Notes: generated by a model from the sequence alone, not told the origin. A stretch of 64,000 nucleotides of DNA from a virus (IMGVR_UViG_3300045135_002262:14783-78782), one strand, 5' to 3'. Counted from the first letter of the stretch, positions 2,517-16,138 are shown. A program made the numbers and translations.

Positions 2517-3376
2517 TATCCTTTATTTAATTTAATAACTGCTCGACCTTCTTGGCCTTCCCAATCTCTGTCATCTCTAACTCGAAGATTTGTTTGCCAA
2601 GTAGCATCTAATACAGGTGTGTTAATAGTTTCCTGACTAGCTATATATCTTAATGCCGTAAGATCCTTCGGGAAACAGTGTCCACCAAAGCCTCTAAATC
2701 CATCAGGTCCTGGCACCATCCAGTGTGAATTACCAAGCCTTGTATCTAACTTAGCTAACTCAACTGCAGTATCATAATCAATACGTAATTGCTCGCAGAT
2801 ATCATAGATCTCATTTGCATAACTTACCTTTACTGATAAGAATGTATTTGTAATGTACTTACACATTTCAGCTTCAGCAGTTCTAACTTTATATACAGGC
2901 ACATTAGGGAATGCAGTCTTAAACATATCTACAACGTTAGTTACATCCACATCAAAACTATGTCCGATTACAATTCTATTTTGATTCTTAAAATCATTAA
3001 TTGCATTTGCCTCCGTCAAGAATTCTGGATTAAAGATAACGTTACAGTATTTAGTAGAGTTATCTAAATTTTGTGTAGTTCCAGGTGGCACTGTAGACTT
3101 AATAATCAATGTTGGTACATTACCAGCATCATCTACAAGTTCATCAATTTGTTGTACTACTGATTCTACAATACCAGTATGTGCAACACCAGTATCCACA
3201 TCCATAGGAGTTGGCACACAAACAAAAATAATCTCTGAATGTTTTACCAAAGTTTCTAAATTCATTGTAGATAACTCAGGCTTGTACTTATCATAAGTAT
3301 GAATTGTATGATATTCTTTAAGACCTTCTCTTACTGCAGAGCCAACGAAACCTTGACCAACAATGCCTATTTCCAT
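2516..3376 (-). CDS. UDP-glucose/GDP-mannose dehydrogenase family protein (short form lacking the C-terminal UDP-binding domain)
   Basis: IGIVGQGFVG Rossmann, FVCVPTP, KSTVPPG, FNPEFL, AEMCKY, GFGGHCFPKD. Confidence 0.9.
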   Translation of the reverse strand: MEIGIVGQGFVGSAVREGLKEYHTIHTYDKYKPELSTMNLETLVKHSEIIFVCVPTPMDVDTGVAHTGIVESVVQQIDELVDDAGNVPTLIIKSTVPPGTTQNLDNSTKYCNVIFNPEFLTEANAINDFKNQNRIVIGHSFDVDVTNVVDMFKTAFPNVPVYKVRTAEAEMCKYITNTFLSVKVSYANEIYDICEQLRIDYDTAVELAKLDTRLGNSHWMVPGPDGFRGFGGHCFPKDLTALRYIASQETINTPVLDATWQTNLRVRDDRDWEGQEGRAVIKLNKG

Positions 3377-3401
3377 GTATATGTGATTTAAATTTATAGA
3401 G

Positions 3402-3430
3402 ATTATATCAAGCAATTAAGCTTTGTTTCA
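3402..3430 (-). promoter_or_regulatory. class II (middle-like) promoter TGAAAC-N17-TATAAT
   Basis: Same bipartite motif recurs at ~11 intergenic sites upstream of minus-strand genes. Confidence 0.7.
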
Positions 3431-3718
3431 TTACATACAGTGTCTAAATATGTAAATACCATAACCTACTAAAAGGTTAAAGTTAATAGCTACAAGATTC
3501 CATTGTTTAGCAATCCAGACTTGAGGAACTGATAGAACTGCACCTATTAAATACGTGTATGCTCCTAAGTCATCATACTGTAATAGGTACGGTGAAATCA
3601 TAATAAAGCCAGTGCCCATATATCCAGCACGGTTTGCCATTCTTTCAACTGGTGAAAGTTTCTTATCCATTACAAATCTAGATAAGAATTTGTTTAGTTT
3701 TTTATATCTTTTTGTCAT
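3431..3718 (-). CDS. small membrane protein
   Basis: Three hydrophobic segments; start moved downstream of the hairpin at 3733-3790. Confidence 0.6.
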   Translation of the reverse strand: MTKRYKKLNKFLSRFVMDKKLSPVERMANRAGYMGTGFIMISPYLLQYDDLGAYTYLIGAVLSVPQVWIAKQWNLVAINFNLLVGYGIYIFRHCM

Positions 3719-3732
3719 AATCATAAAATAAA

Positions 3733-3985
3733 GAAACGGGTCTACCGACAGACGGGGGCCCAAAATATCGGCTAGATACAGACCCGTTTCATAAAAGATG
3801 AGCCCGAACTAGAGCTCCTAATGTTGCTCATCGTCGGGCTCCGCTTGCCTGGCAGTCATGCCGTTACAGCCTTCCAAGCTGAAAATCTTTTGGGACTTAG
3901 AACATGAGTCTTACGTTGCCGTTTGCGCGCTTGGCTGATTGCTCTGATCATAGTCCCTAGGTCGATATGCGCACATATCCCCTTC
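3733..3985 (-). ncRNA. structured RNA(s) 3' of tRNA-Gly, unknown family
   Basis: Stems 3964-69/3974-79, 3892-97/3952-57, 3800-07/3834-41, 3733-43/3780-90; GC-rich; G-U pairs consistent with minus strand. Confidence 0.6.
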
Positions 3986-3986
3986 G

Positions 3987-4060
3987 AGCGAATGACCGGG
4001 TTCGAACCGGCGAACCTCCTGCTTGGCAAGCAGGCGCTCTACCAACTGAGCTACATTCGC
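3987..4060 (-). tRNA. tRNA-Gly(GCC)
   Basis: GCGAATGTAGCTCAGTTGGTAGAGC...TTGCCAA...GGTTCGAACCC...CATTCGCT. Confidence 0.95.
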
Positions 4061-4066
4061 TTGTTG

Positions 4067-4140
4067 TGGAGAATATCGGAGTCGAACCGATGACCTCCTG
4101 CGTGCAAGGCAGGCGCTCTAGCCAGCTGAGCTAATTCCCC
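4067..4140 (-). tRNA. tRNA-Ala(TGC)
   Basis: GGGGAATTAGCTCAG...TTGCACG...GGTTCGACTCC...TTCTCCA, G3-U70. Confidence 0.95.
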
Positions 4141-4143
4141 ATC

Positions 4144-4256
4144 ACCAATCTTATTTTGAGTCTCGATTGGTAAAGACTTTAACGGATTCAATTCCGTTGT
4201 CATTGACTCCACCTTGTTTTGCAGAGACAAGGAACTCTGAGCACCTGACTGCGCTC
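4144..4256 (-). ncRNA. four-hairpin structured RNA/leader 5' of tRNA-Ala
   Basis: Stems GAGCGC/GTGCTC, CCTTGT/ACAAGG, AACGGA/TCCGTT, ACCAATC/GATTGGT, directly downstream of the GATATATA motif at 4261-4268. Confidence 0.5.
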
Positions 4257-4260
4257 GAAT

Positions 4261-4268
4261 TATATATC
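4261..4268 (-). promoter_or_regulatory. class III (late-like) promoter motif GATATATA
   Basis: Same octamer precedes capsid, protease, sheath, terminase and tape measure genes. Confidence 0.6.
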
Positions 4269-4270
4269 TT

Positions 4271-4450
4271 TTAAGCTTTATTAGCCTCTGATACTGCAAC
4301 TCTTACATCTTGTGCAAGTGCTTTTACAGCTTGCATTGCTTTACGTACTCTTGTACCTGCAGCTTTGTTGCCTTTAGTGTCAAATTTCTCAGCATCAGTT
4401 CTTGTTTCTGCTAAAACTTCTTCTAGTTGTGTAATTAAATCTTGAATCAT
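4271..4450 (-). CDS. histone H1-like protein (Hc1 family, Bacteroidota type), 59 aa
   Basis: Manual translation MIQDLITQLEEVLAETRTDAEKFDTKGNKAAGTRVRKAMQAVKALAQDVR...; KGNKAAGTRxRK signature; below the ORF-track cutoff. Confidence 0.88.
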   Translation of the reverse strand: MIQDLITQLEEVLAETRTDAEKFDTKGNKAAGTRVRKAMQAVKALAQDVRVAVSEANKA

Positions 4451-4482
4451 AATTTTTAATTTATTTATGTTATTTATACTTC

Positions 4483-5088
4483 TTACTTTTTTATTGTTTC
4501 AATCACTTTTAAAAATTCTTCAATATTTCTTGAGAATAAAAGATCTTGATGTTGTTGTAATGTTTCAACTGGTAATTCCCACCATTTGCTCTCTTTAAGT
4601 CTTGCTATTGTTGTATTATCAAATCTTTTTCTGATCTCTTTCATTGGAGTACCGCCAACAATTGTATAAGGTTCTACGTCTTTAGAAACTACGGTCCCGG
4701 CTGCAATTACAGCTCCATCACCAATCTTTACGCCACTCATAATAATACAATCCATTCCAAGCCAAACATCATTACCAATAATAATATCGCCATTTGATAA
4801 AAGGCCTTCAGTATCTTCTTCAATCCACGGATTTAAGAATGTAGTTACTCTTTGCCAGTCGTGGTTACCGCTTAATAAAAATCTGCAGCCTGATGCAACC
4901 GATACAAAATGCCCTATTTCTACTTTACGGTTATATCTGTGTTTTGGCTCTGTATGAATAGTTGGATTGCTGTGGTGTTTTGGTGAATCGACTGTAATTC
5001 TAACATGTTGTGCATTAGAACGCACCAAAGCGTCTTTATCTCCTCTTAAACATAAACCGAATTGACCCTTTAAATCACCTACTAACAT
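4483..5088 (-). CDS. CatB/Vat-related hexapeptide-repeat O-acetyltransferase
   Basis: GDIIIGNDVWLG...GVKIGDGAVIAAGTVVSKDVEPYTIVGG...RKRF...KWW. Confidence 0.88.
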   Translation of the reverse strand: MLVGDLKGQFGLCLRGDKDALVRSNAQHVRITVDSPKHHSNPTIHTEPKHRYNRKVEIGHFVSVASGCRFLLSGNHDWQRVTTFLNPWIEEDTEGLLSNGDIIIGNDVWLGMDCIIMSGVKIGDGAVIAAGTVVSKDVEPYTIVGGTPMKEIRKRFDNTTIARLKESKWWELPVETLQQHQDLLFSRNIEEFLKVIETIKK

Positions 5089-5294
5089 TATTTCTTTTTC
5101 TTTTTAGGTTTTGGTTCTTGGTGTACATCAATATACGTATCAGTATCTTTTAAACACTTTTTACAATACGGTGCTCTGTAAATACCACTACCTGGATTTG
5201 ATCTATGCATTTCACGGTTTACCCAATAAACGTCGCTATACGCCACATCGTCTAAACAGTTACTACATACTAATGTTTTTTTACTCTTGGCCAT
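5088..5294 (-). CDS. small zinc-finger protein
   Basis: CSNC...CKKC. Confidence 0.6.
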   Translation of the reverse strand: MAKSKKTLVCSNCLDDVAYSDVYWVNREMHRSNPGSGIYRAPYCKKCLKDTDTYIDVHQEPKPKKKKK

Positions 5295-5970
5295 CTAAAA
5301 ATTGTTGCATTTTGGTTAAGTCCATTCTAAGATCTTTAGGAAAGTGATCCGGTGCTTCACATGGCTCAACTTTATCATTTGTTTGAAGCGCTAATTCATA
5401 TACTGATTTATCATCAGTCCCAATATTATATAATCCAGTTGCACCATATCTAATTAAATCTACAAATATTTCTGCTAATGCATCTGGATAATCAAAGTTC
5501 CCTATAACGTCCGTAAATCCTTTGTCATATGGAAATGGATCAGGTTTTTGGCTACCACGGCAAATCAAATAATCATTACAATGCTTCATGATATATTCAT
5601 CAGCTAATAATTTTGAGATTGCGTATGCAGTCTTTTGTGGCTTAGCCTTAAATGTTTCTTTAGCCGGATGCTTTGAATGGATATACACATAATCAGTTGA
5701 ATAGTGAATCAACTTAATGTTTTTCTTATTGCAAAAATCAACTAAAGATTGCACAGCTCTATAATTTACATCAAAGATTGCATCCCAATTATCACTATAA
5801 GTATCTGTGTTTGCAATTAGATTAATTATCTCAGTTGTGCCTAATGGAATATGTTGCTGCCAATTTGTTTTGGTTAAATCAATTCCATCCTTTGAGCGTG
5901 AAATATAATGCCAACCGGTTTGACCGATTACAGCAGTACCTAAAAGACCATCTCCTAAAATTACTCGCAT
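5281..5970 (-). CDS. RmlD-like (dTDP-4-dehydrorhamnose reductase family) SDR protein
   Basis: ILGDGLLG, LIHYSTDYVY, YAISK motif. Confidence 0.8.
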   Translation of the reverse strand: MRVILGDGLLGTAVIGQTGWHYISRSKDGIDLTKTNWQQHIPLGTTEIINLIANTDTYSDNWDAIFDVNYRAVQSLVDFCNKKNIKLIHYSTDYVYIHSKHPAKETFKAKPQKTAYAISKLLADEYIMKHCNDYLICRGSQKPDPFPYDKGFTDVIGNFDYPDALAEIFVDLIRYGATGLYNIGTDDKSVYELALQTNDKVEPCEAPDHFPKDLRMDLTKMQQFLDGQE

Positions 5971-6158
5971 CCTTCTAATGTTACGTTAACGATTGAATTA
6001 TCTTTTGATGTGATATGTTTAATATAAGCGCTTGGATTCTTAATATTGTCGTATTTTACAACATGGGTTTCATAATGTACAACTACCGTACAACCGCCCG
6101 GTACATTTGATAGTGGATTGTGTCTCCAACCACCTGTAGGTTCATAAACTTTTTTCAT
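5961..6158 (-). CDS. hypothetical protein
   Basis: Coupled ORF. Confidence 0.55.
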   Translation of the reverse strand: MKKVYEPTGGWRHNPLSNVPGGCTVVVHYETHVVKYDNIKNPSAYIKHITSKDNSIVNVTLEGCE

Positions 6159-6159
6159 A

Positions 6160-6702
6160 TTAGAATAACCATTTAGTTAATTTACTATTTAATTTCTTTA
6201 AAAATTCAGGTCTTCCTATTTTAGAAACACCTTTATAATTATATTGAATAATTTTAGTTTGGTTAAATAACTTTGAGATTATAAATTTAAATCTAAACCA
6301 AATTGGATTAAATCTATAATAATCCCCTTTATGAAAAACATAAACATACAGATTTTTTCTATCAAATCTTGATCTTAATGTTTTATTTTTATAATTATAT
6401 GCAAACCCTTCTTTAACCACAAGTTCTAAAAAGCCTTGCAACATATTAGATACACCACCTAAATGCGCAGAAGTTATAATATGCACTTCGGTTGCTGTTT
6501 TTAAGCAATGCATATAAGATCTTGTCAAACTATCTGGCTTTGATCTTGAATCAGCACTTGCGTCATAGGAGTCCTTATACAAATCAATAAGCATATATTT
6601 GTTATCAGATTTAAGATACTTATATCTGACAGTCGGTAATACAGATTTATGATTTATACCAGACTTATGAGAATCCGCTATAATTATAAGAGCATTACGC
6701 AT
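6160..6702 (-). CDS. divergent flavodoxin-like NAD(P)H oxidoreductase
   Basis: ALIIIA..S.NH, IDLYK..YD, MLQGFLELVVKEGFAYNY resembles the Flavodoxin_2 family. Confidence 0.5.
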   Translation of the reverse strand: MRNALIIIADSHKSGINHKSVLPTVRYKYLKSDNKYMLIDLYKDSYDASADSRSKPDSLTRSYMHCLKTATEVHIITSAHLGGVSNMLQGFLELVVKEGFAYNYKNKTLRSRFDRKNLYVYVFHKGDYYRFNPIWFRFKFIISKLFNQTKIIQYNYKGVSKIGRPEFLKKLNSKLTKWLF

Positions 6703-7072
6703 AAGCTAGTTGACGTGTTGCATTTCTTTGCTTCACCGTGTTTCTATAACTTACAATTGCTCTTGCAGCACAATCAACTCTTTTATCATGCGTATCTAAC
6801 ATAATTCTAGTTCTTTCAGTCCAACTAGATGTGTGGCCGTTTTCAAAAACATGTACTCGATTTCTAGAAGTTGTTGGGTTTAGTTGATAAATACACTCAT
6901 CAGACCAACGGCCGTTCCATAATTTTTTACGTCCAAAAGATCTGCGAACATATCCGTTTTCATATAACATGTAATACACGCTTGTTTGTGGATCGAAATA
7001 ACAGATTGTACCATTATCTGCCTGTCGTTGAGAAGTAATCTCAATGCACTTTAGAGTTTCTAATTTGTTCAT
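6695..7072 (-). CDS. hypothetical protein
   Basis: ORF in operon context. Confidence 0.6.
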   Translation of the reverse strand: MNKLETLKCIEITSQRQADNGTICYFDPQTSVYYMLYENGYVRRSFGRKKLWNGRWSDECIYQLNPTTSRNRVHVFENGHTSSWTERTRIMLDTHDKRVDCAARAIVSYRNTVKQRNATRQLAYA

Positions 7073-7090
7073 GATATTGAATTTATATGG

Positions 7091-7540
7091 CTAATTAGCC
7101 ATCCAGTTTCTAAAATTAGCTTGTACGATCTTCCAGCCCAAATCTTGTGCTTTCATAGATTTATGCAACGCGTTCATCATATCTTCGCTATAGGCTTCAT
7201 TGATTTGTTCATTGTGTTCACTGTCAAATGCACCATCCCACCAAATCATTATAGAGATATTATCATCTTCTTCGGACTCTATAACTTTTGATCCGCCATA
7301 ATTACGCTCATACATTTCATCTATCTCTGAAATATATGCAGCTTCATGACCTTTTTTAATTAATTGAGAAGCTAATCTAGCTCTAGACGCTAATACGGTC
7401 TGTCCACTAGATTGAAGTCTTTCAGCCTTTTTATCTAAGGACTGAACAAATGCATAGACGTTTTTCTCAAAAGGATCCCTATTGATTCTCCTTTTGATCG
7501 TCTGCAAAATTCCAACTATCTTCCCAATAAATGAATTCAT
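7091..7540 (-). CDS. hypothetical protein
   Basis: Coupled ORF; weak resemblance to 21339-21824 (WD-x-A-x-D-x-EHN-x-x-IN). Confidence 0.6.
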   Translation of the reverse strand: MNSFIGKIVGILQTIKRRINRDPFEKNVYAFVQSLDKKAERLQSSGQTVLASRARLASQLIKKGHEAAYISEIDEMYERNYGGSKVIESEEDDNISIMIWWDGAFDSEHNEQINEAYSEDMMNALHKSMKAQDLGWKIVQANFRNWMAN

Positions 7541-7761
7541 TAGTCTTCTTCGATTTTTGAGTATTTGTACTTTTTAATGTATGTATTAATGGCTCTTCCT
7601 TGTGACTCTGCGTCGCGAAAAGCGACATAATCTTCTTCTTCAACTCCGTAATAAACATAGCTAGCATGATTAAAATTCACTTCTAATGATTTAGTTTCAT
7701 AAGTATATTTAGATGAAACTACAGTCGATGAATTATATGTATTAGTTTGTATTAATATCAT
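7540..7761 (-). CDS. KTSC-domain protein
   Basis: SSTV...Y...TKSLEVNF...YVYYGV...AF..AESQGR.IN.YIK. Confidence 0.85.
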   Translation of the reverse strand: MILIQTNTYNSSTVVSSKYTYETKSLEVNFNHASYVYYGVEEEDYVAFRDAESQGRAINTYIKKYKYSKIEED

Positions 7762-8078
7762 TACCCGATTACAGTGTTAACTAAATTCTTAAGATTATCT
7801 GGTTTACTTCCGATTTCTTTTGCAACAACTTCACCGTTTACAAAGCCAACAAATGTTGGAAGGTTTTGAATAGTAGTTAAAGATCTTGATTCTTGGAATT
7901 GCTCAACATCAACATACACGAATGTTACGTTTTCAGTCTCTTCGGCATGTTTTTTAACTCTTGGCTTCATGACCTTACATGCACCACACCAAGTTGCGCC
8001 ATACTGCACAACTACTCTTTCATTCTCGTTAACGATATCGGCTAGGTTGTCTTCTGATAATTCTAGAAGTGTACTCAT
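7761..8078 (-). CDS. thioredoxin
   Basis: ATWCGAC, LPTF. Confidence 0.9.
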   Translation of the reverse strand: MSTLLELSEDNLADIVNENERVVVQYGATWCGACKVMKPRVKKHAEETENVTFVYVDVEQFQESRSLTTIQNLPTFVGFVNGEVVAKEIGSKPDNLKNLVNTVIG

Positions 8079-8136
8079 TTAAATATATGATTTTAATTAA
8101 TAACTATGTAATTTATACCTGAATAAGTATAAAAGT

Positions 8137-8934
8137 TTATCCTCTACCGAAAATCTTTTTGAAGATACCAAAAATGCCTCTTCTAGACCTTTGTTTCTTA
8201 GGCTTTGCTTCTTCAATAGGTCTTTCAATCCTTTCTGAATTAGGATCATCAACCGCAGTCCAAATTTCATAATGCACCCCAAAATCAGAATATGGATATA
8301 TTGTGTGACCTGCGTTAGCCCAGCTTTTACCCCATGAATTTCTTAAAATAAAACCTTGGCTATTATAACCTACAATAACTAAAGCGTGGCCACCTAATTT
8401 TTGATCACCGAATGACGGTTTCCAGAATGTATCGCCATCGTTATAAACAGGCATTGCAATATATGCAGGCCCATTCTTATAAATAGATTTCTTTAAGCCT
8501 TCAATAGTTTGAATTCTGGCATAACCAATAATTTTATGATTTGCTGCTTCATTTAAAACCCATGCAGGAATATTTTGAAGTTCCTTCATTTTTCTGCGGT
8601 GATATGACTTTGCAGTTGGAATACCATATTGTTTAAGAATATGCATTGTATGTCTTGGTTGCATACCTTTTTGTGGGCGGTTAGGTCTAAGATTATAAAC
8701 GAAATGTGTAGATAATTGATCTGTTAAACCATAATCCTTTCTTTCCTGCCACATTTTAATTGCTGCGGCTGCATATGCAGAACAAGGACCGTCAACACCT
8801 TGATCCCATACGGGTGGCATTTCATTTCTTAAATCTATAGATCTTGGATATTTATTATCCGGCTGTAAGGCTTCAATGACTAAATCTCTTGGATCGTCTT
8901 CTGAAAGCGCTATAGTATTTACGTCATATCTCAT
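8137..8934 (-). CDS. C1 (papain-like) cysteine peptidase
   Basis: DQG..GPCSAYA, GGHALVIVGY, RNSWG; preceded by GATATATA at 8939-8946. Confidence 0.9.
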   Translation of the reverse strand: MRYDVNTIALSEDDPRDLVIEALQPDNKYPRSIDLRNEMPPVWDQGVDGPCSAYAAAAIKMWQERKDYGLTDQLSTHFVYNLRPNRPQKGMQPRHTMHILKQYGIPTAKSYHRRKMKELQNIPAWVLNEAANHKIIGYARIQTIEGLKKSIYKNGPAYIAMPVYNDGDTFWKPSFGDQKLGGHALVIVGYNSQGFILRNSWGKSWANAGHTIYPYSDFGVHYEIWTAVDDPNSERIERPIEEAKPKKQRSRRGIFGIFKKIFGRG

Positions 8935-8946
8935 AAACTATATATC

Positions 8947-9486
8947 CTACTTGATCAAAAGATATGGCTTCCATGCTTCGTAGATGTGATTTAATTGCTT
9001 TAATAGCATTAAATAATGTGGCTTAGATGGTTTGTCTATCTTAACACCAAATTCTTTAAGCGAAAGATCAGCTTTAGAGTGATTACATTTTAAACAAGCA
9101 GTAACCAGATTATCCCATGTATTTCCACCACCCTTTGACTGTGGTACAACATGATCAATCGTTAGTTTACGTTTATCTCTAGCACCACAATATACACACT
9201 GGTAATTATCGCGCTTAAATACGTTTTGACGACTTGGAGGAATCTTATGTTTAGAATGTTTTACGTAACGTGGAATACGAATAATTGAAGGCTTATTGAT
9301 CTTTAAGTCTTCATCAACCATTTTAAAACAAACTGGGTGATTTTCAATCACTTCAGCGTTACCTTTATAAACAATGACAAATGCCCTTGAAGATGAAACA
9401 ATACTTCTAGGCATATATGAGGAATCTAGTACTAGAGTTTTTTTGTAATCCGGCCCATTGCCGTATTCTTGTGCATCTTCACTCAT
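8947..9486 (-). CDS. HNH endonuclease (McrA-like)
   Basis: RDNYQCVYCG...TIDHVVPQSKGG..TWDNLVTAC.KCN..K. Confidence 0.92.
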   Translation of the reverse strand: MSEDAQEYGNGPDYKKTLVLDSSYMPRSIVSSSRAFVIVYKGNAEVIENHPVCFKMVDEDLKINKPSIIRIPRYVKHSKHKIPPSRQNVFKRDNYQCVYCGARDKRKLTIDHVVPQSKGGGNTWDNLVTACLKCNHSKADLSLKEFGVKIDKPSKPHYLMLLKQLNHIYEAWKPYLLIK

Positions 9487-9502
9487 TTTGTTTGTTTAAT
9501 TG

Positions 9503-9576
9503 CTCCTCCTCTTGGGCTCGAACCAAGGACACCCTGATTAACAGTCAGGTGCTCTAACCAACTGAGCTAAGGAGGA
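9503..9576 (-). tRNA. tRNA-Asn(GTT)
   Basis: Cloverleaf, anticodon loop CTGTTAA. Confidence 0.95.
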
Positions 9577-9587
9577 ATGTTAATTAA

Positions 9588-9663
9588 TGGTCGGGAAGAC
9601 AGGGCTCGAACCTGCGACCCCACGGTCCCAAACCGTGTGCGCTACCACCTGCGCCACTTCCCG
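9588..9663 (-). tRNA. tRNA-Pro(TGG), CCA encoded
   Basis: Cloverleaf, loop TTTGGGA. Confidence 0.95.
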
Positions 9664-9672
9664 TAAAATTAG

Positions 9673-9746
9673 TGAACCCGACAGGATTCGAACCTGTGAC
9701 CGTCTGCTTAGAAGGCAGATGCTCTATCCAGCTGAGCTACGAGTCC
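9673..9746 (-). tRNA. tRNA-Arg(TCT)
   Basis: Cloverleaf, loop CTTCTAA. Confidence 0.95.
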
Positions 9747-9769
9747 ATTCTTTAAATAAAAAATTGTTT

Positions 9770-9832
9770 AGGGCTACCTGTTTGCGAGTGATCTAGAATC
9801 GCCTTAAGCCGGACTTTCGCCTCTAACTCCCT
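9770..9832 (-). ncRNA. small structured RNA, motif shared with 14827-14879
   Basis: AGGG-AGTT-[GGC GAAA GTC hairpin]-GGCT...AAACAG...CCCT. Confidence 0.45.
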
Positions 9833-9845
9833 TTATGTGTAGTTG

Positions 9846-9917
9846 TAGTCCGTACGAGAATCGAACTCGTGTCTTCACCGTGAAAGGGTGATGTCCTAAC
9901 CCCTAGACGAACGGACC
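9846..9917 (-). tRNA. tRNA-Glu(TTC)
   Basis: Cloverleaf, loop CTTTCAC. Confidence 0.95.
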
Positions 9918-9922
9918 AATTT

Positions 9923-9999
9923 TGGCGGTCTGGACGAGATTCGAACTCGCGACCCCATGCGTGACAGGCATGTATTCTAACCAACTGAACTACCAGACC
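9923..9999 (-). tRNA. tRNA-Asp(GTC), CCA encoded
   Basis: Cloverleaf, loop CTGTCAC. Confidence 0.95.
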
Positions 10000-10003
10000 A
10001 ATT

Positions 10004-10072
10004 GTAGGTCATCGCTTAACCTACTGAAGTTGATCAGACTTCATTTGAGTACATCAACAGACGCTCGACGAT
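10004..10072 (-). ncRNA. three-hairpin spacer RNA between tRNA-Ser and tRNA-Asp
   Basis: TGAAGT-CTGATCA-ACTTCA and GTAGGT...ACCTAC perfect stems. Confidence 0.4.
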
Positions 10073-10077
10073 TTTTG

Positions 10078-10162
10078 CAGAGGAAGAGGGATTCGAACCC
10101 CCGGTAGCTTGCACTACGCTGGTTTTCAAGACCAGTCCATTCGACCGCTCTGGCATTCCTCT
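10078..10162 (-). tRNA. tRNA-Ser(TGA)
   Basis: Class II cloverleaf, loop CTTGAAA, long variable arm. Confidence 0.95.
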
Positions 10163-10209
10163 GTAAGTCTTTATATATTTGCTATTGTAACAAATATAGT
10201 CTAAATTTG

Positions 10210-10280
10210 TTACCCGACTAGGATTCGAACCTAGAATGACTGGACCAAAACCAGTAGTGTTGCCGTTACACCATCGGGCA
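10210..10280 (-). tRNA. tRNA-Gln(TTG)
   Basis: Cloverleaf, loop TTTTGGT. Confidence 0.93.
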
Positions 10281-10281
10281 T

Positions 10282-10483
10282 TAAAAAAGATCAACCCACT
10301 AAATTCTCGGTAAACAAATATAGGGTTGATCTGTACAGCCTGGTTGCGTATGTTGACTGCCATAACACCGATCGCAATGATGAGGCCAATTTATTTCCGT
10401 CATATTTCTATAACCGCCAGTGTTGCCTTTCGAAGTGCTTTCACTAACTTATTTCTTCCAGGAGCCTGGCAGGTCCTGTTAGT
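10282..10483 (-). ncRNA. multi-hairpin structured RNA between tRNA-Leu and tRNA-Gln
   Basis: Stems ACTAAC/GTTAGT, CCAGG/CCTGG, GTTATA-GAAA-TATGAC, GGCCT/AGGCT, GATCAACCC/GGGTTGATC. Confidence 0.5.
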
Positions 10484-10518
10484 ATACTCACAATCTACTT
10501 TTTCTATCATCACTTTTG

Positions 10519-10604
10519 TACCACGGGACGGGCTCGAACCGTCACGGCCATTGCTGGCCATCGGATTTTAAGTCCGACGTGTCTACCAATTCCACCACCA
10601 TGGC
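10519..10604 (-). tRNA. tRNA-Leu(TAA)
   Basis: Class II cloverleaf, loop CTTAAAA. Confidence 0.95.
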
Positions 10605-10658
10605 ATAGTACTAATTTCCTCAAGTCAAAGAACTTTCTTTGTTCTGTATTTATACTGT

Positions 10659-10689
10659 CAAATATAACCAAAGTTTCTCAAACAAAAAA
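10659..10689 (-). promoter_or_regulatory. class I (host-sigma/early-like) promoter for the tRNA cluster
   Basis: T-tract...TATATTTG matching the Bacteroidota -7 box TAnnTTTG. Confidence 0.6.
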
Positions 10690-10715
10690 CTTTTTAGCGA
10701 TTATTTTCGCAATAT

Positions 10716-11408
10716 TTATTTAAATTTCATCTTTCTACCTTTAGTCCATCCTTCAGATAGATAAGAATCAATTTCTGTATTTTTTATCTTAATACATTGT
10801 TTTGTTTCAACGTTATGAATCCAACATGTACCGAATTGTGAGTTTTTTTCTCCACTTTGTTTTCCTTTAGAAGATTCTGCAATTTTAGCTTTGGTCTCAG
10901 AACTGTGAGTTCTTCCTTTCCAATTACCCCATTGCTTTGGAATTCTTCTTCCTTCTTTAATTGCTTTATAGTAAGCTTCACTTATTGCTTTACTATTTTT
11001 AGCAGCGTATTCGGGATCAGTTTGTCTTAAACGTTTTATAGTTTCCATTGCCCTTTTCCCTCCTTTTGCGAGCTGTTCTTTAGTCATTGTCCCAGCACCT
11101 CCTTGTCCACCAATCGCAAGATTCATGCACAATGTGTCATTAAGCAATTCTTCATTAACTAGCTCAGCTTCACGTTGCTTTAATTCTTTTCTAGTTGGAA
11201 GAAACTCTAGGATTTCTGTTTGATGATTTTCAAGTCCGTGTTTATTTATAGAATACCATAAATGTTTACCAGAACCTACATATCCATCATCTAGATTATC
11301 CGTAGAGTGCATACCTATATAATACTTATTTGTAATCAAACACATAGTTTTATAGATATAATGATATTTCCTTCTAGAAGCTCTTCTAACTTTATTGCCA
11401 TTTTCCAT
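10716..11408 (-). mobile_element. free-standing GIY-YIG homing endonuclease (Seg-like) with NUMOD3 motif
   Basis: YIYKTMCLITNKYYIGMHST...YVGSG; HSSETKAKIAES; located inside the tRNA cluster. Confidence 0.88.
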
Positions 11409-11447
11409 AGTTTATATATCTACGAAAAATGGCAAAAAGTTTCACGG

Positions 11448-11520
11448 AGCCTCCAGCCGGATTCGAACCGACGACCCGCACATTACAAATGTGCTGCTCT
11501 ACCAGCTGAGCTATGGAGGC
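11448..11520 (-). tRNA. tRNA-Thr(TGT)
   Basis: Cloverleaf, loop TTTGTAA. Confidence 0.95.
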
Positions 11521-11524
11521 AAAT

Positions 11525-11584
11525 CACTCTATATCCTTGCGGCCTTACTTCCAATTCCCAATCGGGTCTCTTCGTTATAGAGTG
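11525..11584 (-). ncRNA. stem-closed small RNA/leader 5' of tRNA-Thr
   Basis: Perfect 9-bp stem CACTCTATA/TATAGAGTG enclosing CCC-GATT-GGG and CC-GCAA-GG. Confidence 0.45.
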
Positions 11585-11609
11585 CAATCATTATTTCCAA
11601 AGAACATAG

Positions 11610-11638
11610 ATTATACCAGGCATAATCCGAATGTTTCA
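11610..11638 (-). promoter_or_regulatory. class II promoter TGAAAC-N17-TATAAT
   Basis: Recurrent motif. Confidence 0.7.
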
Positions 11639-11666
11639 ATGTATAAAACATATTTATCTACTTTTT

Positions 11667-13187
11667 TTAACCTTTATAACTACTCTTCAAAGAAACGGTA
11701 TGATTCCAAGAATCCCCATCTTTCATATAATATCCATGACGAATAAATTGCACAGGCTCTACATAATCAAGACTAACTAACGGTTCTCCGAAAGCTGTAA
11801 TGGTGCCCATATCTAATCCATCAAAATGGTTGAGTTTAATCTCTTCACAGTCTAATCTGTTAACCCAATGGATAGTTCCTTTTGCTTTAACATCTGTCTC
11901 CATACCTGAAAAACTGTCTGGGTAGTGCTCACAAAATACTTCCATGATTTTACCATCAACTTCAAGATAATCGACAGCTTTCACAATACAAACTCCTTTT
12001 AGTCTAACATTTCCACCTAATTTTAAGCGGTTGTATTTTCTATTTGCTTCTACTCTAAAATCATCGCGCTCAATCCAAAACTGCTCTGAGTAATTAACCT
12101 TTCGAGACCCGGCTGCAGTATCTTCTGGGTTATTTTCAAGTTGTGCAGTTCCCTCTTCAAATGGTGTAACGATCGTTAATTTAATTGGGTCTTTAACCAC
12201 CATTCTACGCAATGCATTTTGATTTAATTCATCTCGTAAAATACCATCTAATAAACTACGCTCGATTACACTATCGCGCTTGGTAATTCCTACCTTATCA
12301 CAAAAAGTTCTGATCGAGCTTGCTGTATATCCTCTACGTCTTAAACCTTTTAGTGTTGGCATTCTTGGGTCATCCCATCCATCAACTACACCATCTTCAA
12401 CCAATTCTTTTAACCATCTTTTACTTAGTCGAATTCCTTCAACATTAAGTCTTGAGAATTCTATTTGACGTGGTAACGGTCTGTTTAAATCCAAATTCTC
12501 TAAAACCCAGTTATAGAATGGTCGGTGTGGTTCAAACTCTAATGTACAAAGTGAATGAGTAATGCCTTCATACCAATCTGAAAGTGGATGTGCAAAATCA
12601 TACATTGGATAGGCTTTATACTTATCGCCAGTGTTATGGTGAATTGCATCAACTTTACGATAGATCACAGGATCTCTCATCAATAAGTTTGGATCTGCCA
12701 TATCCACTTTAGCTCTTAAGACTGAATTAGATTTACCGTCTAAAAGATCTTGGAATAGCATTGCATTTTCTGAAGCAGTTCTATTTCTATATGGAGAGTC
12801 TTGACCTGGGTTTTCCAGATCACCTTTCATTGCTGCGATTTCTTCACTCGTAGAATCATCAATATATGCAAGTCCTTTCTCGATTAACTCGGCTGCACAA
12901 TCTCTTAAGAAATCAAAATAGTCACTTGCCCAGAATGTATTGTCAGGTTGGAAGCCTAACCAATTAATATCCTCTTTAATACTATCAACAAAGATTTGAT
13001 CTTCTGCTAATGGGTTAGTATCATCGAAACGTAAATTACATTCTGTGTTGTATTTTTTAGCTAAGCCAAAGTTAAGGCAAATAGCTTTAGCATGGCCTAA
13101 ATGTAGATGGCCGTTAGGCTCCGGCGGGAATCTAAAGCGCAGATTCTGCTTATCTCCAGATTCTATAATTTCTTCAATAAAATTCAT
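11667..13187 (-). CDS. glnS: glutaminyl-tRNA synthetase
   Basis: RFPPEPNGHLHLGH, RFDDTNP, YPMYDFAH, HSLCTLEF, LSKR, GWDDPRMPTL, KGTIHWV. Confidence 0.95.
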   Translation of the reverse strand: MNFIEEIIESGDKQNLRFRFPPEPNGHLHLGHAKAICLNFGLAKKYNTECNLRFDDTNPLAEDQIFVDSIKEDINWLGFQPDNTFWASDYFDFLRDCAAELIEKGLAYIDDSTSEEIAAMKGDLENPGQDSPYRNRTASENAMLFQDLLDGKSNSVLRAKVDMADPNLLMRDPVIYRKVDAIHHNTGDKYKAYPMYDFAHPLSDWYEGITHSLCTLEFEPHRPFYNWVLENLDLNRPLPRQIEFSRLNVEGIRLSKRWLKELVEDGVVDGWDDPRMPTLKGLRRRGYTASSIRTFCDKVGITKRDSVIERSLLDGILRDELNQNALRRMVVKDPIKLTIVTPFEEGTAQLENNPEDTAAGSRKVNYSEQFWIERDDFRVEANRKYNRLKLGGNVRLKGVCIVKAVDYLEVDGKIMEVFCEHYPDSFSGMETDVKAKGTIHWVNRLDCEEIKLNHFDGLDMGTITAFGEPLVSLDYVEPVQFIRHGYYMKDGDSWNHTVSLKSSYKG

Positions 13188-13327
13188 CGATCTATAGAAT
13201 TGTTATAATTTATATTATTATACTGTATTTTGGTTAAAAGTTACAATAAAATCTTAAATTTTGCTAAATTTTTTTTAGTTTCAAAATATCAACATATTAT
13301 GCGTAAAACTGACAAATTTGGCAAATT

Positions 13328-13448
13328 GCGGCCTATACATAAAATATAACGGTTTGATAGATAAACTGTTGGAAGGCCGCGCTGAACAGGGGTGCACTAC
13401 GTAGCACGTCAAAAAAAGGTTCAGATGCGCCCAACACGGGAACGCGTC
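13328..13448 (+). ncRNA. GC-rich three-stem element at a divergent intergenic region
   Basis: GCGGCCT/AGGCCGC, CTGAAC/GTTCAG, GATGCG/CGCGTC; G-U pairs indicate plus strand. Confidence 0.45.
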
Positions 13449-13476
13449 AAGCCCACGTGAATAATATATAATTTAT

Positions 13477-13842
13477 ATGGAGCTTTTATCTTTAAATTGG
13501 TATATTTCACAGCCGATTGATTTCGAGCAGAAGCAGTATATGCTCTACGCGTACCTGCAAAATGTAGATAAATCTTTTCTACAGATGCGCGTTAGTCCAC
13601 ATCTTTTACACTTAGAAAGGCTTAACGATAACATGATGGATTTCTACCAGAAGTTTACAAGCTTCGATACGGAATTAGAATCTAAGAGATACAAGTATTT
13701 TTGCTCACCTGCGTTAGAAAACAAAGAAAATGAGTTTCTAACAGAGGTATTTGACATTGTAGATTTCTCTATACCACTCGTACGTGGGAAGATCTTACAA
13801 GGTTATAAAATACTTAAGAAGAATGATCAGCTTCTATATTAA
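13477..13842 (+). CDS. hypothetical protein
   Basis: One of few plus-strand ORFs filling otherwise empty space; W...PIDFEQKQY.L.AYLQ. Confidence 0.7.
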   Translation: MELLSLNWYISQPIDFEQKQYMLYAYLQNVDKSFLQMRVSPHLLHLERLNDNMMDFYQKFTSFDTELESKRYKYFCSPALENKENEFLTEVFDIVDFSIPLVRGKILQGYKILKKNDQLLY

Positions 13843-13942
13843 GACCGATATAAACCTCATTACATTCTTGACAAATGCCATAGGTTCCATGTGACGATGT
13901 TACTATCTTCACATCACCACCACACTTTTTACAAGTTTTCAT
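13814..13942 (-). CDS. small zinc-ribbon protein (42 aa)
   Basis: MKTCKKCGG...CQEC; start just downstream of tRNA-Val. Confidence 0.45.
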   Translation of the reverse strand: MKTCKKCGGDVKIVTSSHGTYGICQECNEVYIGLNIEADHSS

Positions 13943-13944
13943 TG

Positions 13945-14020
13945 TGGGAAATACAGGATTCGAACCTGTGACCCCCCTGCTTGTAAGGCAGGTGCTCTGA
14001 ACCAACTGAGCTAATTTCCC
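13945..14020 (-). tRNA. tRNA-Val(TAC)
   Basis: Cloverleaf, loop CTTACAA. Confidence 0.93.
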
Positions 14021-14046
14021 GGTGCTACTACTCCGATTTATTTATT

Positions 14047-14430
14047 TTACTTTTTTAGATCATTTACTTTATGAGAAAGCAGATCTACAAATGCTGTATT
14101 ATCATTAAATTTAGCATTTAAATCGGCGATGTGTTTTGAAATACCATCTGCCATTTTGTCTGTACGAGAATCAACATACTTATAAAGTTCGTTTAAATTA
14201 TCCTCGTGGTTTTGATAAAGTTTATCAGCATATTCATAATGCTTATGATTTATTTTATCAACTCTATCAATTTCTTGATCGATTCTACGCTCGATCATGT
14301 CGATGCGATCATAAAGATCTTTTTCAGTGTTTGCGAACTCTTTTAGTTCACTCTTAATCCTAAACACACTCACAACAGCCATTACTACAGCCACTGAAAG
14401 CATACCTAAAACAAAATAAAGTGTTTCCAT
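14047..14430 (-). CDS. membrane-anchored coiled-coil protein
   Basis: METLYFVLGMLSVAVVMAVVSVFR then coiled coil; upstream part of the track ORF overlaps tRNAs. Confidence 0.7.
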   Translation of the reverse strand: METLYFVLGMLSVAVVMAVVSVFRIKSELKEFANTEKDLYDRIDMIERRIDQEIDRVDKINHKHYEYADKLYQNHEDNLNELYKYVDSRTDKMADGISKHIADLNAKFNDNTAFVDLLSHKVNDLKK

Positions 14431-14471
14431 AATTCTTAAATTTTTATTTATGGAATAGTAGCACTTTTTAG

Positions 14472-14543
14472 TACGCCGGGAAGGATTCGAACCCTCATCG
14501 CCTGATCCGTAGTCAGGAATTCTATCCATTGAACTACCAGCGC
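14472..14543 (-). tRNA. tRNA-Arg(ACG)
   Basis: Cloverleaf, loop CTACGGA. Confidence 0.95.
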
Positions 14544-14556
14544 AAAAAACATTTAG

Positions 14557-14637
14557 TACACAAGGTGGGAATCGAACCCACACACTTAAAGTACCAGATC
14601 CTAAATCTGGCGCGTCTACCAATTCCGCCACTTGTGC
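14557..14637 (-). tRNA. tRNA-Leu(TAG)
   Basis: Class II cloverleaf, loop TTTAGGA. Confidence 0.95.
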
Positions 14638-14640
14638 AGT

Positions 14641-14734
14641 TTGCCGGGGTGGGATTTGATACCCACACAAAATACCTCCACTCGAGTTGGATATTCTACG
14701 GATGTCCGCGCCTCTGCTGTTGGGCTACCCGGCT
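14641..14734 (-). ncRNA. tRNA-like RNA lacking an anticodon loop
   Basis: Acceptor GCCGGG/CCCGGC, D-arm TAGCC...GGC, collapsed GCGGA-CA-TCCGT arm, long variable arm, T-arm GTGGG-TATCAAAT-CCCAC. Confidence 0.7.
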
Positions 14735-14736
14735 AG

Positions 14737-14819
14737 TTGGAGTGGAGGGACTCGAACCCCCAAGCCTAAAAAGGACCTGATTTACAGTCAGGCGAGCCAA
14801 CCAATTGCTCAACACTCCA
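14737..14819 (-). tRNA. tRNA-Tyr(GTA)
   Basis: Cloverleaf, loop CTGTAAA, extended variable arm. Confidence 0.93.
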
Positions 14820-14826
14820 TTAATAA

Positions 14827-14879
14827 ACAGGGTTTCTGTTTTAAAGTTATCGTACCATCGCGAATGGACAACTCCCTGT
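14827..14879 (-). ncRNA. small structured RNA, motif shared with 9770-9832
   Basis: ACAGGG-AGTTGTC-[CAT..ATG]-GATAACT...AAACAG..CCCTGT. Confidence 0.5.
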
Positions 14880-14886
14880 ATTTTAT

Positions 14887-15040
14887 AGAGGCTCCCTCAC
14901 CGACACGAATCACTTTTCCCATATTCTCTCCGGGGCACTGCCGTTAAATGAGCCACGATGTACACTTCAAATATTCCGACCTACTAAGTGATTTGTTTCA
15001 GTCCATATACTTCAAGGATCCAGATCGCTTCTTCTCCTCT
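14887..15040 (-). ncRNA. ~150-nt multi-stem RNA 3' of tRNA-Ile
   Basis: AGAGG/CCTCT closure, GCGAT/ATCGT, CACTT/AAGTG, CTCAT/GTGAG, CGGCA/TGTCG. Confidence 0.5.
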
Positions 15041-15043
15041 TTG

Positions 15044-15117
15044 TAGTCTCGGGCGGACTCGAACCGCCAACCCCTCGCGTATCAGGCGAGTGCTCTAACC
15101 AATTGAGCTACGAGACT
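15044..15117 (-). tRNA. tRNA-Ile(GAT)
   Basis: Cloverleaf, loop CTGATAC. Confidence 0.95.
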
Positions 15118-15138
15118 TTAAACCATTAAGTAAAGAAC

Positions 15139-15336
15139 TTAGACTTCCATCTGCAAGTCGTGGAAACACTCCTTACATAAGAACTCCATTACAGTTACGT
15201 TTCGAACATCTGCCTCGAAAGGGTTTTCAGTCCAAACACCTAACTCTCGTTCGCAGCTTTCGCAAGTGTCAACTAAGTCGCCGAACAATTCTCTTGCAAC
15301 TGCTTCTTTTTCCTGTTTTGTCATCATCTTTTCCAT
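15139..15336 (-). CDS. small zinc-finger protein
   Basis: CESC...CKEC. Confidence 0.6.
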   Translation of the reverse strand: MEKMMTKQEKEAVARELFGDLVDTCESCERELGVWTENPFEADVRNVTVMEFLCKECFHDLQMEV

Positions 15337-15400
15337 AGTTTTAAAATTTAATTAAGGTTTTCTGTCTCTATTAAATCAACTATCACTGATGATTACTCTA

Positions 15401-15432
15401 CTAATATACGAAATTCCGTTCAGATAAAAAAA
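15401..15432 (-). promoter_or_regulatory. class I (early-like) promoter
   Basis: TTTTTTTATCTG...GAATTTCGTATATTAG; recurrent 32-bp motif. Confidence 0.75.
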
Positions 15433-15593
15433 TGTTTGAGCAACTTTTTTTAAAATATTTCTAACTTATCTTACCCTCAGCCGGAAACCCTTAATTATAT
15501 TCAGGCCCTCTTTAAAAGTTTCAGATCATGTTCCATAAACGTGGCTTTTTAACTTTAAGCCACAAAGCCACGGTCTTACCGGCCAACCACATT

Positions 15594-15782
15594 TTAAAGC
15601 GCATGACCTAACTTTTCGTGTAACCTCTTCATGTGTTTACATGGTCTGTATCGACTAAATTCTCTTGCTTTACAATCACAATCTACAATCTTCCAATCTG
15701 TAACCTTAACTCTGTAATAGCTAAGCTTGCCAGTTTTCTTATTGCGAGATCCCATCTCTTTGTAATACCAAGTTTTACTCAT
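15594..15782 (-). CDS. SWIM zinc-finger protein
   Basis: DCDCKA..F....PCKH. Confidence 0.75.
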   Translation of the reverse strand: MSKTWYYKEMGSRNKKTGKLSYYRVKVTDWKIVDCDCKAREFSRYRPCKHMKRLHEKLGHAL

Positions 15783-15930
15783 TGTCTAGATCTTTTTTCC
15801 AGGACTTATCCTTTCGGTTATACTTATTTTTATCACCATGATCCTTTTGAATCATCTTACGACGAATCAATTGGCTAAGGTGTCTTTCGTTATACCCATC
15901 AATATCAGAACGGGAGGTCTTCTTTTTCAT
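15775..15930 (-). CDS. small basic protein (51 aa)
   Basis: Manual translation MKKKTSRSDIDGYNERHLSQLIRRKMIQKDHGDKNKYNRKDKSWKKDLDNE; overlaps both neighbours. Confidence 0.5.
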   Translation of the reverse strand: MKKKTSRSDIDGYNERHLSQLIRRKMIQKDHGDKNKYNRKDKSWKKDLDNE

Positions 15931-16138
15931 CTTTAACAATTTTTTCAAGCTTTAGCTTCTCAATATCTATCTCTGTAGTGATCAAAGAAGCGAAAGGTCT
16001 TTGCATTAAACCAGAAATAATCCAATCTTGTGCCGGCCATTTTAGGTTTTGATTATCTGCAATCATATTAGCTTTTGAGAATGCATGTTTGTCATCTCTA
16101 GCTTCTATATCCATTTGGAACGTTACTGTGTATCTCAT
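15905..16138 (-). CDS. hypothetical protein ending DLPF (SSB-tail-like)
   Basis: Downstream of class I promoter; acidic EDLPF C-terminus. Confidence 0.6.
   Translation of the reverse strand: MRYTVTFQMDIEARDDKHAFSKANMIADNQNLKWPAQDWIISGLMQRPFASLITTEIDIEKLKLEKIVKDEKEDLPF

Follow-up and report, generated by a model that had tools for sequence, protein, structure and literature searches.

Bacteriophage T4 encodes within its tRNA cluster two small non-tRNA RNAs, the stable RNAs C and D (species 1 and 2), which are approximately 120-140 nucleotides (nt) long, are transcribed together with the tRNAs and become free when these are processed, and whose function is unexplained. ROOL and GOLLD, pseudoknot-rich non-coding RNAs of approximately 580 to more than 800 nt found near tRNA islands of phages and prophages, self-assemble into 8- to 14-mer cages via kissing loops and A-minor contacts (PMC12286853). 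Hepatitis delta virus (HDV)-like theta ribozymes of gut phages are located within 5 nt of phage tRNA 3' ends and have been proposed to remove 3' trailers (PMC10879173). Here, we analyzed a 64-kb stretch of viral DNA (IMGVR_UViG_3300045135_002262:14783-78782; hereafter the window), which is part of a 78.8-kb IMG/VR virus record with a CheckV completeness of 35%. The sequence of this record is present in public seawater, marine and estuary metagenome runs. The window has a G+C content of 0.352 and contains 16 tRNA genes in four groups, all on the minus strand, with ARAGORN and Rfam in agreement. Three of the spacers beside these tRNAs, referred to as modules B (4141-4270), C (9770-9832) and D (10000-10076), are conserved RNA families with compensatory changes and are absent from Rfam 15.

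The initial annotation of this locus had compared its spacers with the stable RNAs of the T4 tRNA cluster, and the likeness is apt, since both are small non-tRNA RNAs inside a phage tRNA cluster. The two are likened by description only, and members of the module D family are 52-83 nt long, against approximately 120-140 nt for the T4 RNAs. ROOL and GOLLD are 10 times larger, whereas D, C and B are short single modules whose self-pairing is predicted from palindromic loops alone. No Rfam hit to ROOL or GOLLD was obtained in the window, and its longest spacer has 253 nt, compared with the criterion of >500 nt and many conserved stems for such RNAs.

Module D, the linker between tRNA-Ser and tRNA-Asp, is recognized by the covariance model R1 with 85 bits; it occurs once in the window and nowhere else in the record. 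Read on the minus strand, it comprises an A-run (10072-10076), the sequence AUCGU (10068-10072), an extra hairpin (approximately 10047-10066), hairpin Pb (10026-10042), with the loop CUGAUCA including the palindrome UGAUCA, and hairpin Pc (10004-10024), with the loop UUAAGCGAUGA, the GCGAU of which pairs with the 5' AUCGU. When the spacers were compared by BLAST with loci fetched with a neighbouring protein, D alone matched, always directly after a tRNA and in distant phages. A first pattern scan of IMG/VR yielded 12 stretches, nine of them genuine; a relaxed pattern retrieved at least 119 IMG/VR stretches among the matches listed, and model R1 matched 96 new loci at 33-61 bits, with one hit each. 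A BLAST search of D against 50,697 cultured-phage records, T4-like phages included, gave no match. A pattern scan of 185,579 prokaryote species genomes gave 64 hits, with only one genuine member, located on a 20-kb contig. D is thus a widespread phage RNA family without an Rfam 15 entry and is essentially phage-only.

A total of 72 distinct D members from the IMG/VR matches listed were parsed with a purpose-written parser, because model-based alignment misaligns the variable hairpin. All 72 begin with a pyrimidine, followed by an A-run (A7 in 52/72) and then by UCG and a pyrimidine. The middle part consists of an optional hairpin, frequently with a GNRA-type loop, and of hairpin Pb, whose 5-bp stem shows 34 pair combinations. 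The Pc stem, GYAGG/CCURC, shows eight pair combinations and encloses the loop UUAAGCGAURU. This loop (UUAAGCGAU) pairs back to the 5' UCGY, so that RCGAU and AUCGY can form a pseudoknot. Approximately 20 nucleotides are invariant. In an eight-sequence seed alignment all 15 proposed pairs are paired throughout and six pairs are changed on both sides, a result equalled by none of 500 shuffles. Across the 72 members the base after UCG in the pseudoknot is always a pyrimidine facing an invariant G, and one D copy (L193) has C-G in place of U.G. A scan of all IMG/VR for loop variants at the C found one genuine case, a change from C to U that keeps the pair as G.U. The two D stems contain 32 G.U pairs, which fixes the strand as that of the tRNAs.

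The position of D in tRNA arrays is also constrained. In 54/72 members no more than 5 nt separate the start of the A-run from the 3' end of an upstream tRNA, as assigned by ARAGORN, the distance being 0 in nearly all of them; 15 isotypes are represented among these tRNAs. Downstream, a tRNA or transfer-messenger RNA (tmRNA) begins 4-8 nt past Pc in 48/72 members, with 17 types represented. Given this exact abutment to tRNAs of many isotypes, D fills one slot of the tRNA array and is indifferent to the flanking tRNA.

Some neighbours of D in other phages are unusual. A tmRNA instead of a tRNA follows D in L184 (approximately 1640-1698, minus strand) and in L217 (after position 478), and in the latter the tmRNA called by ARAGORN begins 6 nt past D and encodes a tag peptide. 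A conserved tRNA-shaped sequence lies directly past D in L186 (1857-1930), L193 (2440-2512, minus strand) and L183 (approximately 11309-11380). It starts with GCAGGUCACAGACAAGG; its acceptor stem has 7 bp, its T arm is normal and one loop reads CUCCAAA. ARAGORN makes no call for it, and it is possibly a non-canonical tRNA-Trp. Phage L315 carries two different modules of 92 and 96 nt (4506-4597 and 4988-5083, both on the minus strand), one of them with the palindrome AGCGCGCU, where other relatives carry D or few bases. The modules appear interchangeable between tRNA slots.

The loop of Pb often consists of AA, six self-complementary letters and A. The palindrome varies by phage and includes UGAUCA, UGGCCA, UAGCUA, UGCGCA, UGUACA and GUGCAC, as well as the 8-mers UGAUAUCA, UGCUAGCA and GCUGCAGC. 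A Watson-Crick palindrome of at least 6 nt is found in 17 of 40 distinct Pb loops, compared with 2.9 +/- 1.6 in composition-preserving shuffles (maximum 9 in 2000). The dimerisation initiation site of human immunodeficiency virus 1 (HIV-1) has a 9-nt loop of the same build, AA followed by a 6-nt palindrome and A, and its palindrome is of the GUGCAC or GCGC type depending on the lineage. Many D loops have this 9-nt format (for example, AAUGCGCAA and AAUGGCCAA); the molecule and its biology are unrelated, and dimers of the phage RNA are proposed from sequence. In both D and C the loop hexamer stays self-complementary despite sequence change, the behaviour expected of such an initiation site. Since the letters of the palindrome drift and its symmetry is retained, a loop-loop homodimer is predicted, whereas a site for a sequence-specific protein would behave otherwise. 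This pattern suggests that D may form kissing-loop dimers.

The lineage of D-carrying phages that includes L206/L275 and L313-L316 also matches spacers C and B. Module C, on the minus strand, is the leader of tRNA-Arg(tct), and its homologues in L206, L313, L314, L315 and L316 precede tRNA-Arg(tct) in every case. Two boxes, GGCUUAAGG and CAAACAGGUAGCC, are invariant among the homologues. The hairpin between them (9784-9802) has the stem GCGA/UCGC, which changes to GUCA/UGAC, and carries the loop palindrome UCUAGA at 9792-9797. This loop is a perfect 6-nt palindrome in four of the five variants (UCUAGA, AGCGCU, AACGUU and GGUACC), all different and at the same loop position; the fifth has the imperfect AGCGCA. 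In the closing stem, AGGG/CCCU is replaced by AAGG/CCUU. The five variants contain two compensatory stem pairs. Two of the helices proposed for the overall fold of C would need the same C residues.

Module B, also on the minus strand, is the leader of tRNA-Ala, and its homologues in L206, L315 and L316 precede tRNA-Ala in every case. It has a conserved core (4199-4253), followed by the box GGAGUCAAUGAC and two more hairpins, and its folding z-scores range from -2.87 to -3.8. The core includes the H-type pseudoknot AGAG-UU-CCUUG-U-CUCU-GCAAAA-CAAGG (4212-4238). Among the four sequences all cells of this pseudoknot are paired (100%), and three pairs of stem 2 are changed on both sides. In L316, B is a plain spacer between tRNA-Thr and tRNA-Ala without the promoter-like ATATATA box upstream, which indicates that B is a module at the RNA level. 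The topology of the B core (4-bp stem, 2-nt loop, 5-bp stem and 6-nt A-rich loop) is the same as that of the preQ1-I riboswitch, which has a conserved C in its ligand-binding loop and regulates a ribosome-binding site or terminator located downstream. However, B has a middle loop of 1 nt and no ligand pocket, precedes a tRNA rather than a gene with a ribosome-binding site, and gave no hit to the Rfam PreQ1 models. Together, B, C and D bear out the earlier proposal of structured RNAs on the tRNA strand for at least three spacers, which are conserved with compensatory changes in other phages.

The spacer at 14827-14879 (minus strand), K1, is a candidate paralogue of C. It shares with C the pattern AGGGAGUU ... 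AAACAG ... CCCU and has a hairpin with the loop UCGCGA. The pattern occurs at those two sites only in the window; it was derived from both sequences and is therefore not independent. No homologue of K1 was found elsewhere. From this shared pattern, K1 may be a member of the C family.

As a set, the nine spacers are GC-rich in an AT-rich genome, as initially described, with a G+C content of 0.42-0.55; the window as a whole has 0.352, and the remaining intergenic DNA of this region has 0.17-0.35. They also remain unannotated: besides the 16 tRNAs no Rfam 15 family (4227 models) reaches its gathering score, and scanning the region or individual spacers at relaxed thresholds gave only chance-level hits (E from 0.09 to 10). 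When the spacers were searched for shared repeats, the only similarity was that between tRNAs. The claim that they lack a credible open reading frame (ORF) holds for long ORFs, and two short ones inside spacers remain as candidates on the minus strand: a 34-amino-acid (aa) ORF with an ATG start inside trailer F (10299-10403) and a 37-aa ORF at 14809-14922. The 34-aa ORF has Cys/His pairs (HHCDRC ... PGC) and could encode a zinc-ribbon micro-protein, replacing or alongside RNA structure.

The spacers had also been described as stem-closed units, which the folding energies support in part. Minus-strand energies at the exact spacer coordinates were compared with dinucleotide shuffles. Four of the nine spacers clearly beat the shuffles, namely A (3733-3985, z = -2.85), B (4144-4256, z = -2.87), H (11525-11584, z = -2.48) and J (14641-14734, z = -2.62). 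Three are marginal (-1.35 to -1.75), namely D (10004-10072, z = -1.44), F (10282-10483, z = -1.35) and K1 (z = -1.75), and two are at chance level, namely C (z = +1.27) and K2 (14887-15040, z = +0.76). Folding energy, a check suggested in the initial annotation, is a poor criterion here, because C and D, which are conserved, do not stand out from shuffles; it fails for two of the three spacers whose reality is shown by conservation. Nor does folding energy discriminate the strand, as the two strands fold about equally well. The earlier argument that G-U pairs favour the tRNA strand therefore finds its support in the G.U pairs of the relatives and in strain variants. Among those listed, the strain variants at 3768, 3770 and 10411 turn Watson-Crick pairs into G.U pairs in predicted minus-strand hairpins, which gives a hint only.

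A and F are 3' trailers ending in intrinsic terminators. The terminator scan overlooks terminators with long loops, and these were read by eye. Trailer A follows tRNA-Gly on the minus strand and has four parts: a lineage-specific insert of 125 nt (3862-3985) with the hairpin loop AAGCGCGCAAAC at 3918-3935, a conserved box AUGACUGCCAG (3849-3859), terminator T1 (3791-3841), which the terminator scan partly recovered, and terminator T2 (3725-3790), in which the strain variants 3768 and 3770 keep pairs as G.U. In L206, L315 and L316 the box (AAUGACUGCCAG) and one terminator come straight after tRNA-Gly without the insert, so that A in the window exceeds its relatives by the 125-nt insert and the second terminator. 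Trailer F (10281-10517, minus strand; z = -1.1 to -1.35) follows tRNA-Leu(taa) and contains several hairpins, including a terminator with a 10-bp stem and a U-run just ahead of tRNA-Gln (10287-10334, read from the sequence). The variant at 10411 preserves an F pair as G.U. In Escherichia coli, 3'ETS-leuZ is a tRNA 3' external transcribed spacer that acts as a sponge of small RNAs. A and F are comparable as terminator-ended trailers of tRNA operons that would be freed by 3' processing, but they have no sequence relation to 3'ETS-leuZ, and F and the A insert are not conserved in any relative found.

J, between tRNA-Tyr and tRNA-Leu on the minus strand, is a defective tRNA look-alike. It aligns over the full length of the Rfam tRNA model (RF00005) with 18.2 bits, below the gathering score of 29 bits. 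Its acceptor, D and T arms align and it has a long variable arm, but its anticodon region is aberrant, with 25 nt instead of 17, and ARAGORN makes no tRNA call. A tRNA would be expected to have a 5-bp anticodon stem and a 7-nt loop with U33. We infer that J is a tRNA-derived relic or mimic. Spacer H is the leader of tRNA-Thr on the minus strand and has a 9-bp closing stem, which is unconfirmed; when it is extended slightly, to 11521-11600, the minus strand scores z = -1.77 and the plus strand z = -3.06. Spacer K2, after tRNA-Ile on the minus strand, shows neither structure evidence by its z-score nor a conserved match in the loci searched. No homologue of the A insert, F, H or J was found in these loci either.

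Other searches for relatives were also negative. A megablast search of 3000-16000 against cultured phages gave tRNA matches only, and the comparison of spacers A, F, J and K with the five records closest by B, C or D gave only matches to tRNA T arms. In IMG/VR neighbours of the glutaminyl-tRNA synthetase (GlnRS) gene (65-79% identity), tRNAs are absent or different beside the gene, and no spacer homologues were found there, whole records included. In a metagenome scan with GlnRS, bacterial GlnRS of 45-53% identity predominated, and no informative locus emerged. The proposal of about ten small RNAs is thus not upheld, since the set includes two trailers with terminators, one tRNA look-alike, two spacers without support (H and K2) and one, K1, that was recognized by a post hoc motif.

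The 16 tRNA genes are at the positions initially given. They comprise tRNA-Gly(gcc) and tRNA-Ala(tgc) (3986-4140), tRNA-Asn, Pro, Arg(tct), Glu, Asp, Ser, Gln and Leu(taa) (9502-10604), tRNA-Thr standing apart (11446-11520), and tRNA-Val, Arg(acg), Leu(tag), Tyr and Ile (13944-15117). The genes among them are likewise on the minus strand. A GlnRS-type class I Glu/Gln aminoacyl-tRNA synthetase of 506 aa (11667-13187), with the Pfam tRNA-synt_1c and anticodon-binding domains, is set among the tRNAs, close to tRNA-Gln; its metagenome relatives, to which JGI gives the name glutaminyl-tRNA synthetase, share 95%, 89% and 84% identity. GlnRS relatives are located on contigs of 175-205 kb, so the term jumbo phage used earlier is plausible, although it is not established from a 78.8-kb fragment. 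Two free-standing homing-endonuclease-like genes located within the tRNA cluster or at its margin, a NUMOD3 gene with a GIY-YIG-like N-terminus (10716-11408) and an HNH endonuclease gene (8947-9486), may account for the variation of tRNA order and spacer content between relatives. An Hc1 histone H1-like gene of 59 aa (4271-4450; PF07432, E = 2.5e-19) lies immediately upstream of module B. A GC-rich block (up to 0.53) at 13300-13450 is found, with no adjoining tRNA, within the AT-rich gap where the coding strand switches from the synthetase gene to a plus-strand ORF. The box GTTCTTTGAC (10624-10633, minus strand) is located approximately 17-20 nt ahead of the first base of tRNA-Leu(taa) and also precedes tRNA-Ser in four other phages (for example, L206, approximately 7408-7417, and L037, approximately 9161-9170). 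It resembles the Bacteroidota -7 promoter element (TAnnTTTG type) more than a sigma-70 -35 box, and a sigma-70 promoter scan gave hits no more numerous than in shuffles.

As a whole, the locus is best explained as a set of minus-strand transcription units that alternate tRNAs with RNA modules folding on their own, an explanation we hold with slightly more confidence than doubt. Because D abuts its flanking tRNAs exactly, the enzymes that mature tRNA ends would cut it out: D, and C likewise, would be freed as discrete small RNAs by RNase P acting at the downstream tRNA and by maturation of the 3' end of the upstream tRNA. Through its palindromic loop, each module would make a kissing contact with another copy of itself, of the sort found in the HIV-1 hairpin and in ROOL and GOLLD. 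The palindromes here are UGAUCA in D, UCUAGA in C, UCGCGA in K1 and GCGCGC in the A insert, and a distinct palindrome per module type would keep the dimers separate. A and F would be 3' external trailers ending at terminators, and J would be the tRNA-derived relic or mimic. Excision by tRNA processing and self-dimerisation are well-motivated inferences, and the decoy function suggested in the initial annotation is speculation. Our best guess is that the dimers would form an RNA particle resembling a tRNA, which would act in trans on a host or phage factor that binds tRNAs and would not be solely a processing signal. For D itself, we tentatively propose a phage-only tRNA-linker RNA, excised by the host, that would act in trans as a sequence-addressed homodimer and titrate, for instance, a host defence nuclease that recognizes tRNA or a tRNA-modification or processing factor; this specific role is possible, and we would not expect it with confidence.

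Several points weigh against this explanation. Nearest-neighbour energy separates neither C (+1.27) nor the marginal D (-1.44) clearly from shuffles. The D patterns fixed UCG and the loop AAGCGAU, and hence the pseudoknot is weakly tested; Pb stems were located by a hairpin search, and their pairing is partly by construction. No palindrome of at least 6 nt is present in 23 of the 40 Pb loops (for example, AAGGAACAC), so dimerisation cannot be universal. D has just one or two copies per cluster, and for four of the nine spacers (A insert, F, K2 and H) the loci searched yielded no homologue. The RNA evidence consists of assembled contigs of one RNA library, which are silent on ends and strand. 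In this library a 208-nt contig covers 3754-3970 at a depth of 4.2 and a 1087-nt contig covers 10098-10569 at a depth of 16.5. Coding contigs of the same run have depths of 3-6 and DNA carry-over is possible, hence no conclusion on expression is drawn.

The modules may instead act in cis only, as leaders, trailers, insulators, terminators or promoter-proximal structures that aid the independent folding of neighbouring tRNAs and guide RNase P, Z or E, and are degraded once cut. We regard this as a doubtful possibility. It would fit the terminators at the ends of A and F, the constant position of B and C ahead of the same tRNAs (Ala and Arg(tct)) and the wedging of D between two RNase P substrates, and an A-rich single strand right after a tRNA is a plausible endonuclease entry site in view of how bacteria mature tRNA 3' ends (reviewed in PMC10879173). 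However, most tRNA-tRNA junctions in the same clusters need only 4-12 nt, which makes a 70-nt pseudoknotted module superfluous for processing. D is also indifferent to tRNA identity, and an insulator role leaves the maintained palindromic loops and the approximately 20 invariant nucleotides unexplained. The exact contact of D with tRNA 3' ends, together with its compact pseudoknotted fold and a number of invariant nucleotides typical of small ribozymes, could also indicate a new self-cleaving ribozyme that cuts at its own 5' edge (pyrimidine/A-run) and frees the upstream tRNA 3' end. The theta ribozymes, found within 5 nt of phage tRNAs, provide a precedent (PMC10879173), and D resembles them as a small structured RNA abutting phage tRNA 3' ends of many isotypes. 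The helix order of D (a b b' c a' c') is nevertheless unlike the nested double pseudoknot of HDV, which is built of P1, P2, P3, P1.1 and P4 and carries a catalytic C in J4/2, and D begins with an A-run rather than a P1 strand. In addition, a simplified HDV-like descriptor, our own approximation of the published one (PMC10879173), found no candidate at the 16 tRNA 3' ends (shuffles, mean 1.8), and no Rfam ribozyme model matches. We therefore consider a ribozyme improbable.

It is quite improbable that the modules are functionless, decaying remnants of duplicated tRNA genes. For J alone, with its sub-threshold full-length tRNA match, this origin is likely. In the order of its parts D also mirrors a tRNA that lacks the 3' strand of the acceptor, with 7 nt first, then a short arm, next an arm whose stem has 5 bp and finally the 5-bp arm GG-UU...-CC, but decay would not yield its compensatory conservation in more than 100 contigs from different phages and beside at least 15 isotypes, and B and C are without tRNA features. 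The palindromes could also be sites at the DNA level, for a dimeric DNA-binding protein, restriction or methylation, with the RNA folds incidental. Each is a palindrome of 6-8 bp, as type II restriction sites are, and homing endonuclease genes are present within the cluster. Their letters, however, change freely among relatives while the position in an RNA hairpin loop is retained, whereas a protein site would keep its sequence; moreover, the surrounding stems covary and their G.U pairs are valid on one strand only. DNA-level sites are accordingly a highly improbable explanation.

Phage tRNA clusters are usually annotated as tRNAs and filler; here, three such fillers are conserved RNA families absent from Rfam. 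Folding-energy z-scores overlook real pseudoknotted modules, which matters for the triage of scans of this kind. At approximately 70 nt, D is an experimentally tractable model for the role of non-tRNA RNAs in phage tRNA clusters. If the proposed role is true, D would be an acceptor-less tRNA-like particle, and C-type modules would work likewise under an address of their own. D also bears on whether RNA self-assembly of the ROOL/GOLLD type may be a general habit of tRNA-island RNAs.

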